DNA of 64,000 nucleotides. Source: a plasmid. The first letter of the stretch is position 1. Each line of letters begins with the position of its first letter. This document shows, piece by piece, positions 37,208-39,138 of the stretch. Made by a program: the position numbers and the translations under genes. The notes under the pieces are model-generated. The model saw nothing but the letters and a program-made list of their open reading frames with translations. It had not been told where the DNA came from and ran no database searches. The stretch is from assembly GCF_988243305.1 (NCBI RefSeq), contig NZ_OZ547137.1; one strand, written 5' to 3'.

Positions 37208-39082
37208 TGGTGAGAGATCGGGATAGGGGCTGATCTCACGATTAGCCTCCTCCCACACCACCGTACATACGGGTCCGTATACGGCAGTTCGGTTATGTTT
37301 ATCGTCGCCTGCCTATAACTCCGGTAGGCCCAGTCTGACGAACAGGCGATTGGGAAGTGCTATGCTCAGTGCCGGACTACAGCTTATCCGCCATTGCTTA
37401 TGGCAACTCCCTACCGTTTGCGCTGCAAGGTCTTTGCTTACTCCCCGTCTGCGCAACTCTTTGAAGCGCTTGCTGCCCGTTTTCCACTGTTTCCACAGGA
37501 CACTTCGCAACCTTCGCCTTATCCACCTGTTCAGATCTCTCATCAGCGTTTGCCACTGGTTCAGTCCATAGTAGCTTTTCCATCCCGTCAGATATCGCTT
37601 TAACGGTTCGATAAGCTGCTCTAGGCTTTTGCCCGTGTTACGCCCCGTCAGTTCTCTTATCCGGGTTTTGAACCGCTTCACCGATTCCGGCAACACCACA
37701 CACCACACCTTTCTGCCCCTCCTGAAGCTGTAACCCAGGAACTTACGCGTCTCCGGAAGCGCTACCGCGCTCTTCTTCGCGTTGAGCTTCAGCTTCAGTT
37801 TCCGGTTCAGCCAGTGCGTCAGCCCCGCCATCATACGGTTGCCTGCCCGTTCACTCTTCACATACACATTACAGTCGTCTGCGTAGCGGGCGAACTTCAG
37901 GCCGCGTTTCTCAAGTTCCTTATCGAAGTCATCCAGCAGCAGATTCGATAACAGTGGCGACAGTGGGCCGCCCTGCGGCGTCCCTTCTGTCACCGGCATT
38001 ACCAGACCCGCTTCCATCACACCTGCATTCAGGTACCCGCGGATAAGTGACAGCACCCGTTTATCCGATACTCGTTTCGCTATCCGGCTCATCAGTACAT
38101 CGTGATTCACCCGATCGAAGAACTTTTCCAGATCGAGGTCAACCCCCCAGCTGTAGCCCGACTCGATGTATTTCTGAGCCTGCTTCACTGCCTGATGCGC
38201 CGAGCGTCCGGGCCGGAACCCGTAGCTGCTGTCGCTGAACGTCGCATCCCACTGTGCCTGCAACACCTGCATCATCGCCTGCTGGATAAAGCGATCCACC
38301 ACCGTCGGGATGCCCAACAGACGTTCGCCGCCGCCGGGCTTCGGGATAGTCACTCTTCTTACAGGGGATGGGCGGTAGCTGCCGGACAGCAGTTGCGCTT
38401 TCAGTTCCGGCCAGTGGTGTCTCAGATAGTCCGGCAGTTCGCTTACGCTCATGCCGTCGGCTCCCGCCGCACCTTTATTGGCCTTCACTCTTTTCAGGGC
38501 ATGCCTGAGGTTGACTGGTTCGCAGATGGCTTCCATCAGCCACGCTGTTGACGATGGACTTTCTCTGGTCGTCGGTGCCTGCACGGTTTCAGCCCCCTGA
38601 GAACCGGCGTCAGGGGCTTCACCCCGTCTTCCTGCATCAGGGTCGCGATACGTTTTCTGCTGCATGACCGTTCAGAACCTCCGCTGATACTCGTCACTCA
38701 TTACCGTTCGGGCCTTCAGACGCGCCTGTCCTACTATGCCCTCTGCTGACTCCTGTCCGCCGGTCAGCGCACCTTACGGTACGCTCAGTTCTGAATACAG
38801 AACGCCAGACAGGCCTCCCGGGGTAAGCTCAGCCGCTTTCACCACACACCTGCCCAATCTACCACCCCGGCTCTTGATGGTTATGGCCTTTGCAATCAAT
38901 GGCTTGCTCCGCCAGCCGGGTAGGCCTCATATCGGATTTCTGTTCGTCAGGTCATGGTTTTGCTCCACGCTTCCTTCAGATCCCGCCTCACGACGGCACC
39001 CTTGCGCTTCACGAGTCCTTCGCCACCATCAGGCTGGACAGGGGACTTTCACCCCCGAGCTGCTGAGCATGCCCGGCACACC
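37208..39082 (-). mobile_element. Group II intron (about 1.9 kb), probably bacterial class C
   Basis: 5' GTGTG at 39082 (minus) directly after a terminator hairpin; RT ORF inside; domain V-like hairpin at about 37262-37295 and domain VI with bulged A at about 37210-37240. Confidence 0.7.
37313..38665 (-). CDS. Group II intron-encoded reverse transcriptase/maturase
   Basis: 450-aa ORF with RT motifs including YADD and a C-terminal maturase region. Confidence 0.9.
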   Translation of the reverse strand: MQQKTYRDPDAGRRGEAPDAGSQGAETVQAPTTRESPSSTAWLMEAICEPVNLRHALKRVKANKGAAGADGMSVSELPDYLRHHWPELKAQLLSGSYRPSPVRRVTIPKPGGGERLLGIPTVVDRFIQQAMMQVLQAQWDATFSDSSYGFRPGRSAHQAVKQAQKYIESGYSWGVDLDLEKFFDRVNHDVLMSRIAKRVSDKRVLSLIRGYLNAGVMEAGLVMPVTEGTPQGGPLSPLLSNLLLDDFDKELEKRGLKFARYADDCNVYVKSERAGNRMMAGLTHWLNRKLKLKLNAKKSAVALPETRKFLGYSFRRGRKVWCVVLPESVKRFKTRIRELTGRNTGKSLEQLIEPLKRYLTGWKSYYGLNQWQTLMRDLNRWIRRRLRSVLWKQWKTGSKRFKELRRRGVSKDLAAQTVGSCHKQWRISCSPALSIALPNRLFVRLGLPEL

Positions 39083-39138
39083 ATAAAAAAGCCCCCACGG
39101 GCTTTATTACTAAATTCAATACAAACAACAAATTATGC

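Follow-up and report, generated by a model that had tools for sequence, protein, structure and literature searches.

On the minus strand of the window, a 64,000-nt stretch of the plasmid contig NZ_OZ547137.1, an intrinsic-terminator-like hairpin (AAAGCCC-GTGG-GGGCTTT, 39088..39105) is followed by the T-run tail TTTATG (39082..39087) and then by the GTGTG (39081..39077) that opens an element of 1865 nt (37217..39081; 5′ GUGUG to GAU 3′). This order, found at 39105..39077, had already been recognized in a sequence-only reading of the same DNA, as had the 450-aa reverse transcriptase (RT)/maturase ORF, which is present and intact (38665..37313). We are highly confident that this minus-strand element is a full-length bacterial group IIC intron that retrohomed just 3′ of an intrinsic-terminator hairpin on an F-type Escherichia coli plasmid; all features described below lie on the same strand. 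Both ends of the intron were set by an empty site together with the points where homology stops in copies elsewhere. The intron-free site of the Salmonella plasmid NZ_CP017721.1 reads GGGCTTTTTTATG/CTCTCACC, the whole 1865-nt unit being precisely missing. The 3′ end accordingly lies at 37217 (...CCCGAT), and the span of 37208-39110 proposed in the sequence-only reading has to be corrected, since its 3′ end at 37208 runs 9 nt too far and its start at 39110 takes in the exon hairpin. Splicing is predicted to ligate the exons as GGGCUUUUUUAUG/CUCUCACC. The intron is intergenic, 112 nt upstream of a PD-(D/E)XK nuclease gene, and so interrupts no ORF. Twelve plasmid records contain the intron with its flanks, all 99-100% identical, while a sequence search found the same site empty in many plasmids (NZ_CP017721.1 verified). 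It is a known kind of element, and public records of E. coli plasmids already carry its gene under the annotation ltrA.

A covariance-model scan for intron domains, of the kind suggested in the sequence-only reading, recovered three parts of the ribozyme. The domain I core (38827..38997) matches the full Rfam model RF02001 (group-II-D1D4-3) with 137.3 bits (E 1e-29), the region of domains II-III (38711..38787) matches RF01998 (group-II-D1D4-1) with 53.7 bits (E 2.7e-8), and domains V and VI match RF00029 with 38.7 bits (E 1.7e-5), slightly short of its gathering score (40). Within the domain I core, the Rfam alignment places an 11-nt unpaired bulge, AUCUGAAGGAA, at 38971..38981, carrying the AGGAA motif typical of class IIC in the ε′ region; six copies agree in 10 of the 11 columns, the first being A or G. 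Domain V (37257..37288) has a distal stem 2 bp short, with four columns of the upper stem and loop deleted in the Rfam alignment and a fold consisting of a 4-bp upper helix capped by a GACC loop, and its catalytic triad lies at 37286..37284. In domain VI (37220..37254) the branch-point A is bulged out at 37224, at a distance of 7 nt from the 3′ splice site. The domain V/VI hairpins that had been noticed near the 3′ end are thus present (37288..37220) and foldable, and across five copies 99.2% of cells are paired, with four compensatory pairs, against 35-50% in slid-partner controls. These domains, together with the 5′ GUGUG and the 3′ GAU, agree with the definition of a group II intron as a six-domain ribozyme that opens with GUGYG, closes with AY and has a conserved domain V and a bulged A in domain VI.

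The intron-encoded protein of 450 aa (37313..38665), situated in domain IV, combines an RT domain with an X/maturase domain (Pfam RVT_1 2.8e-42; GIIM 2e-18) and carries its YADD motif at 37885..37874; the Pfam search found no HNH endonuclease domain in it. The closest solved protein is the GsI-IIC RT from Geobacillus stearothermophilus (PDB 6AR1), aligned over its full length (471 bits, E 4e-140), residues 43-448 of the window protein corresponding to residues 3-408 of the 6AR1 chain. In both, the RT domain, the thumb/X domain and a C-terminal region follow one another in this order and an endonuclease domain is lacking, but the window protein comes from an enterobacterial host and has about 42 additional N-terminal residues, which are common to the ORFs of the same length in the related copies L006, L011 and L012. 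Next among the solved proteins, and more distant than GsI-IIC, come the 7UIM group II intron RT/maturase (350 bits, 1.7e-103, full length) and then the RT-domain proteins 5HHJ and 5HHL (about 1e-82), which are IIC maturases of Eubacterium rectale or Roseburia intestinalis. Scores against LtrA of class IIA (131 bits, 4.5e-37) and the 6ME0 protein of class IIB (121 bits, 5.9e-34) are far lower. Compared with relatives of 80-88% protein identity, the ORF gives dN/dS values of 0.09-0.18.

Comparison of close relatives of the intron provided eight independent insertion sites, namely those of the window, L002/L013, L003/L007, L004/L005, L006, L008, L011 and L012. At all eight a GC-rich hairpin and a T-run lie directly upstream and end 6-10 nt before the splice site, so that a terminator stem-loop stands where IBS2 would lie in the 5′ exon, and the same arrangement precedes L015, a distant relative with 49% protein identity. 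The adjacency of hairpin and intron is not due to chance, as eight independent sites and one distant relative are alike, and the target preference for terminator stem-loops that the sequence-only reading had ascribed to class C introns is borne out at each of them. Apart from hairpin and T-run, the 5′ exons of the eight sites have no sequence in common. In the window the hairpin was called terminator-like by a terminator scan (7 pairs, 4 of them G-C, and a T tail), its folding energy is -12.8 kcal/mol (z = -3.8 against shuffled sequences), and it is unchanged in the intron-free site of L001. Six sites (window, L002, L004/L005, L006, L008 and L012) have a GC hairpin that is short and nearly perfect, with a loop of 4 nt; the other two, L003 (an imperfect stem with a 6-nt loop) and L011, have weaker hairpins, still with a T-run. 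Next to the insertion sites of the family lie cdiI and a LysR gene as well as a toxin-antitoxin operon and prophage genes, but no integron cassette.

Pairing between intron and exon follows the same sites. EBS1 lies in the 8-nt loop GCCAUUGA of a hairpin with a GCAA/UUGC stem (38892..38907), as the triplet CAU at 38901..38899, opposite the last three exon nucleotides, AUG (39084..39082). At all eight independent sites this triplet (intron nt 181-183) complements the three nucleotides that close the 5′ exon, in four different combinations (EBS1:IBS1 CAU:AUG, AAA:UUU, AAG:CUU and AUG:CAU, with one G·U pair in L011). The EBS1 of this enterobacterial IIC family appears to have changed at least three times (CAU, AAA(GAA), AAG, AUG). 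Pairing extends to the fourth position in L003/L008 alone, which can form up to 6 bp (AAAGAA:UUCUUU). A candidate EBS3 is the G at intron nt 223 (38859), in a 2-nt internal bulge of domain I, its putative partner being IBS3, the C with which the 3′ exon begins (37216). The combination of nt 223 and the +1 base is G/C in the window, L002 and L012 and A/U in L003, L005 and L006; since few independent changes are involved, the assignment of nt 223 as EBS3 is suggestive only.

Class IIC introns differ from those of classes IIA and IIB in a domain V distal stem that is 2 bp shorter and in a catalytic triad in the basal stem of domain V that reads CGC instead of AGC, the first position being A in IIA/IIB and C in IIC (PMC1702495). 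They are further described as having an 11-nt bulge with a conserved AGGAA in the ε′ region, an EBS1-IBS1 pairing of 3-4 bp and a terminator stem-loop in place of IBS2 (PMC1702495), and an EBS3-IBS3 pairing as in IIB is also typical of the class. The window intron has the shortened distal stem, the 11-nt AGGAA bulge and a 3-bp EBS1. On the side of the protein, 6AR1 and 7UIM give better pairwise scores than LtrA and 6ME0, and HNH is absent. Protein scores against solved proteins, RNA features and insertion at a terminator at every site examined thus agree in supporting the class C assignment that the sequence-only reading had put forward. The window intron is an ordinary, well-preserved member of that class, for which a position after a terminator hairpin is normal.

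Two other identities were considered for the element. The RT might come from a non-intron system (retron, DRT defence or group-II-like RT) and stand beside the hairpin by coincidence. An RT of a non-intron class was one of two findings that the sequence-only reading had named as refuting its proposal, the other being the lack of a foldable domain V/VI; both were looked for, and neither applies. Weak matches to the retron St85 model and to the Drt2, Drt3 and Drt4 models would fit this explanation, yet all stay below the curated cut-offs (St85 67 bits against 235, Drt3a 55 against 200, Drt2 54 against 390), whereas the group II intron model TIGR04416 is matched with 421 bits, its cut-off being 300, and a GIIM domain was identified. 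The ORF moreover lies inside a complete ribozyme (RF02001 137 bits, domains V and VI), and the empty site lacks exactly the whole unit; we regard a non-intron RT as refuted, its probability being negligible. Scarcely more probable, and likewise rejected, is membership in the IIC-attC sublineage, represented by S.ma.I2 and E.c.I7, which share the class C ribozyme and protein type with the window intron and use integron attC sites as target in place of terminators (PMC3001079). Such an intron, E.c.I7, is known from E. coli itself (PMC3001079), and attC sites are imperfect inverted repeats as well. The hairpins of the window family are, however, followed by a T-run at all eight sites and are near-perfect and GC-rich at six, which is the architecture of intrinsic terminators, and the genes around them (toxin-antitoxin, cdiI, prophage and LysR) come without integron cassettes. 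The preferred identity therefore remains that of a terminator-associated class C intron.

A different question is whether this class C intron is still functional, and here the catalytic triad of domain V is critical. All relatives for which domain V was read (L002, L003, L005, L006, L012, L013, L014 and L015) have CGC, while the window copy has UGC, with the U at intron nt 1796 (37286), and the same U is found in the 55989p copy, which occupies the same insertion site. The CGC of class C thus holds for the intron family and, taken literally, not for the window copy. Judged against its relatives, UGC is a derived C-to-U transition that keeps a U·G pair. Both U-bearing copies inspected (window and 55989p) occupy one and the same plasmid site, so that the variant gives no sign of having moved since the mutation arose. 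The sequence-only reading had suggested that the intron may still be mobile. In favour of this are the intact ORF, the intactness of both ends, and a relative, 91% identical to the window intron, that is present as a pair of 100% identical introns, L011 and L012, at different sites of a single genome, an identity that points indirectly to recent movement of that relative. The UGC triad and the confinement to one site speak against it, and continued mobility of the window copy is only partly supported.

The intron may accordingly be class C by descent and yet be a catalytically impaired or immobile passenger, handed down vertically on the plasmid backbone, that now splices or retrohomes poorly, which we consider a serious possibility, if somewhat short of an even chance. 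In its favour are the triad, in which a C-G pair has become U·G and which the 55989p copy shares, the near-identity of the 12 plasmid records, the many plasmids that are empty at this site, and four candidate homing sites in the window (hairpin, T-run, ATG and Y), all of them unoccupied; an empty site lies at 36704..36682. Set against it are the intactness of the full-length ORF, the YADD motif, both splice sites, the branch-point A, EBS1 and IBS1, and the natural variability of the first triad position (A in IIA/IIB, C in IIC; PMC1702495), at which U·G still pairs; active IIC introns are, besides, themselves expected to be poorly transcribed and of low copy number (PMC3522654). Given the UGC of the window copy against the CGC of its family, the activity of this copy is uncertain. 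That it still splices and moves, as a natural case of tolerance, in a family with at least three EBS1 switches and one sublineage with a 6-bp EBS1-IBS1 pairing, is a combination that we judge rather unlikely as a whole. Most E. coli relatives of the intron are damaged: the ORF has 405 aa in L002 and 160 aa in L003, and the L008 intron is interrupted by IS100.

By analogy with IIC introns such as B.h.I1 (PMC1702495; PMC4424553), the intron would be transcribed when transcription reads through the terminator, and the encoded protein would bind its own intron RNA and aid splicing. The resulting lariat RNP could then find its target by means of the stem-loop together with the EBS1-IBS1 and EBS3-IBS3 pairings, where the intron RNA would reverse splice into DNA. 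With no endonuclease in the protein, synthesis of cDNA would probably be primed by nascent DNA at the replication fork (PMC1702495; PMC4424553). B.h.I1 of Bacillus halodurans serves as the model for class IIC (PMC1702495; Robart et al., 2007, as cited in PMC4424553). Compared by description only, it and the window intron share the position after an intrinsic-terminator stem-loop with the splice site 3-11 nt past the stem, a 3-4 bp EBS1-IBS1 without IBS2, a short domain V, the AGGAA bulge, and a protein gene of about 1.3 kb in domain IV without an endonuclease domain. They differ in the phylum of the host and in the triad, UGC and not CGC in the window, while the L003/L008 sublineage of the window family, with its possible 6 bp, goes beyond the usual 3-4. 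Class C introns already on record from Enterobacterales include E.c.I6, Di.ze.I1 and So.gl.I1, the latter two of which were reported to lie downstream of Rho-independent terminators with conserved IBS1 and IBS3 (PMC3522654). All three resemble the window intron in class, host order, low copy number and location on mobile elements (PMC3522654).

Beyond correct annotation the locus is of little importance; knowledge of its exact boundaries (39081..37217) guards against mistaking the ribozyme and the hairpin for something else. The eight target sites, each with an EBS1 triplet to match, form a compact collection of natural data on the way in which IIC introns select and switch their targets, and the 6 bp possible in one sublineage exceed the 3-4 bp held to be typical. 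The UGC variant offers a simple test of the weight of the first triad position; were this copy still to splice and move, it would reveal tolerance at a position usually held by A or C only.

No published name for the window intron was found. The four genomes reported to contain the class C intron E.c.I6 at full length (CFT073, ED1a, S88 and APEC O1) are absent among the 23 matching E. coli records, defined as those covering at least 80% of the query intron; for this reason the window intron is probably a different member, distinct from E.c.I6. E.c.I7 is an attC-type intron, and E.c.I11 lies on pEC958, which is absent among the plasmid matches listed. The fragment on the 55989 plasmid is missing from parts 3 and 4 of the seven-part supplement of Leclercq & Cordaux. 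About 200 E. coli chromosomes contain a match to the first 65 nt of the intron inside genes annotated as ‘IS66 family transposase’. In UTI89, the one case inspected, all that is left at the cdiI terminator is the 65-nt 5′ stub of a related intron, cut off by an IS66 remnant, at the site that holds a decayed full-length copy in E. coli 1303.

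On the minus strand an exon hairpin, AAAGCCC-GTGG-GGGCTTT (39105..39088), is followed directly by the spacer TTTATG (39087..39082) and this in turn by the intron 5′ end GTGTG (39081..39077), so that these features, together with the 450-aa ORF (38665..37313), are all found as the sequence-only reading had listed them. The hairpin is terminator-like in a consensus terminator scan, with four G-C among its seven pairs, a loop of 4 nt and a tail rich in T, and folds at -12.8 kcal/mol compared with -4.8 ± 2.1 in shuffles. The intron boundaries were sought by megablast of the intron region and its flanks against plasmids, which identified records with both flanks contiguous, that is, intron-free sites. 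The empty site of the Salmonella plasmid NZ_CP017721.1 reads ...AAAGCCCGTGGGGGCTTTTTTATG|CTCTCACCATAAGAG..., with nothing between; since the flanks are joined there without an insert, the inserted unit is 39081..37217, 1865 nt running from GTGTG to CCCGAT. In copies at other sites, homology to the window intron ends at the same two positions, 39081 and 37217. The extent originally proposed (37208-39110) is therefore too long at both ends: 37208 lies 9 nt into the 3′ exon, while 39110 takes in the exon hairpin.

The best matches of the 450-aa protein among solved structures are, on sequence comparison, group IIC intron proteins, headed by the GsI-IIC RT (6AR1; 470.8 bits, E 4e-140, residues 43-448) and followed by the 7UIM protein (350 bits, full length) and the 5HHJ and 5HHL RT domains (about 280 bits), which we take to be IIC proteins; matches to LtrA (IIA, 131 bits) and the 6ME0 protein (presumably IIB, 121 bits) are partial. 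The description of the protein as an intact RT/maturase holds: the full-length ORF encodes RVT_1 (2.8e-42) and group II maturase GIIM (2e-18) domains and scores 421 bits against the NCBIfam group II RT/maturase equivalog (cut-off 300), while a domain search found no HNH domain in it. A retron or DRT identity, under which the RT would belong to a non-intron class, was rejected because those models score far under their cut-offs.

The RNA features separating IIC from other classes (Toor et al., 2006; PMC1702495) agree with the protein matches in all but the DV catalytic triad. The distal stem of DV is 2 bp shorter in IIC introns (PMC1702495), and the window DV lacks four columns of the alignment, so that its upper helix has 4 bp and is capped by a GACC loop. 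The 11-nt bulge with AGGAA (PMC1702495) is present as AUCUGAAGGAA (38981..38971), unpaired in the Rfam model alignment and invariant across six copies in every column but the first. EBS1-IBS1 comprises only 3-4 bp in the class (PMC1702495), as in the family of the window intron; a terminator stem-loop stands where IBS2 would be (PMC1702495), as it does here; and IIC proteins lack an endonuclease domain (PMC4424553), as does the 450-aa protein. The exception is the triad, CGC in place of AGC in the class (PMC1702495) and likewise CGC in the relatives whose DV was read, but UGC in the window copy. In behaviour and anatomy the window intron conforms to the descriptions of IIC introns (B.h.I1: PMC1702495; reviewed in PMC4424553). 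Its interpretation as a class C intron behind a terminator stands. Class C introns of Enterobacterales include E.c.I6, Di.ze.I1 and So.gl.I1 (PMC3522654) and the attC-type E.c.I7 (PMC3001079). The gene is labelled 'ltrA, group II intron reverse transcriptase/maturase' in RefSeq, no published name for the intron was found, and the most fitting place for it is among the established IIC introns, as one more representative.

The ribozyme has Rfam matches to domain I (RF02001, full model, 137.3 bits, E 1e-29), the D2-D3 region (RF01998, 53.7 bits) and, at a relaxed threshold, DV/DVI (RF00029, 38.7 bits against a gathering score of 40, E 1.7e-5), the last terminating exactly at 37217. The DV/DVI-like hairpins noticed at the 3′ end are borne out by this match, by a fold z of -3.3 and by covariation: in an alignment of five copies, paired cells make up 99.2% (slid-partner controls 35-50%), and four DVI pairs have changes on both sides. 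The bulged A of DVI is 37224, 7 nt from the intron 3′ end.

Close relatives (79-96% nucleotide identity) occupy seven further unrelated sites: a prophage of E. coli 06-00048 (L002; L013 from IMG/VR is the same site), 3′ of cdiI in E. coli 1303 (L003), Klebsiella plasmids (L004/L005), a Providencia plasmid (L006), a lambdoid prophage of E. coli 2012C-4221 (L008) and two sites in one IMG/VR genome (L011, L012). At all seven a GC-rich hairpin and T-run end 6-10 nt 5′ of the splice site; hairpin fold z, computed for L002, L003, L004, L006 and L008, ranges from -3.6 to -4.5 except at L003, where a weaker hairpin with an imperfect stem gives -1.7. The same arrangement recurs at L015, whose protein is 49% identical. 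The EBS1 hairpin of domain I (intron nt 175-190) has a GCAA/UUGC stem and an 8-nt terminal loop in which nt 181-183 differ between lineages and in each case complement the final three bases of the exon: CAU with AUG (window, L002), AAA with UUU (L003, L008; extendable to AAAGAA with UUCUUU), AAG with CUU (L004/L005), AUG with CAU (L006, L012) and AUG with UAU (L011, one G.U pair). This lineage-wise matching provides direct comparative evidence for the predicted EBS1-IBS1 pairing. Intron nt 223, one of the two nucleotides of an internal bulge, is a candidate EBS3: G at this position accompanies C as the first 3′-exon base, and A accompanies U; as independent changes are few, this is suggestive only.

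Whether the window copy may still be mobile, as had been proposed, is less straightforward. In its favour, the ORF retains YADD and the length of those of L006, L011 and L012, its dN/dS against relatives is 0.09-0.18, and both splice sites, the branch A, EBS1 and IBS1 are intact in sequence. L011 and L012 are 100% identical across 1768 nt at two sites of a single genome, and the family has therefore moved recently. Against this, the first triad base (37286) is U, as against C in those relatives for which DV was read, so that U.G replaces a C-G pair; in plasmid 55989p, the truncated copy occupying the window's site likewise has U. Full-length copies with 99-100% identity are all on plasmids, and those examined with flanks are all at the window's site. 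Four further sites in the window with hairpin, T-run, ATG and then C or T, candidates for homing by this intron, hold no copy: 35262 (-), 35438 (+), 7637 (-) and, the nearest, 36704-36682 (-; AAGGCCCTACGGGGCTTT-TTATG|T), which is the terminator of the PD-(D/E)XK gene and lies ~0.5 kb downstream of the intron in the same orientation. Other E. coli copies are mostly decayed. The window copy may, on these sequence features, still be mobile.

The window intron interrupts no ORF. At the empty site of NZ_CP017721.1 the hairpin shares its strand with a dinJ/relE-like toxin-antitoxin operon and lies ~130 nt 3′ of it, with a PD-(D/E)XK nuclease gene about 120 nt further on. In the window the sequence upstream of ~39170 is replaced by a truncated IS66-family orfA (80-aa ORF, 39383..39141, minus strand), which adjoins the ancestral flank of the intron site in the place of the operon. 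In UTI89 (L007 3001-3065), a related IIC intron is cut off by an IS66 remnant after its first 65 nt, and this 5′ stub lies directly 3′ of the cdiI terminator, where E. coli 1303 carries a decayed full-length intron; PGAP labels part of the stub 'IS66 family transposase', and corresponding 65-nt matches occur in a further 200 or so E. coli chromosomes, UTI89 being the one inspected.

A second IIC-type DV/DVI relic (48232-48303, minus strand; RF00029, 47.2 bits) combines a CGC triad with a short DV, is 88% identical to the main intron across 42 nt, has no adjoining RT ORF and lies between an IS3-family orfB (47160-48026) and autotransporter-like ORF fragments. This orfB (288 aa) is present in two identical direct copies, 39930-40796 (+) and 47160-48026 (+), bracketing about 6 kb with a 403-aa membrane-protein ORF (41494-42705, minus strand), which could be a composite-transposon-like arrangement. 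Rfam matches in the window at 84-169, 19215-19324, 23173-23349, 56893-57017 and 57916-58014 include AS-traG, the FinP/traJ 5′ UTR and sok antitoxin RNA, indicating an F-type conjugative plasmid, as well as STnc490 and the ALIL pseudoknot, an IS3-family frameshift signal. Finally, a metagenome contig (L014 927-4314; IMG/VR 3300027694_000279) carries a more distant IIC intron (47% protein identity) twice, as identical head-to-tail copies that repeat every 2005 nt and meet at the junction ...CCCGAU|GUACG...; this is either a true tandem insertion, for which DVI acted as target stem-loop, or an artefact of assembly.
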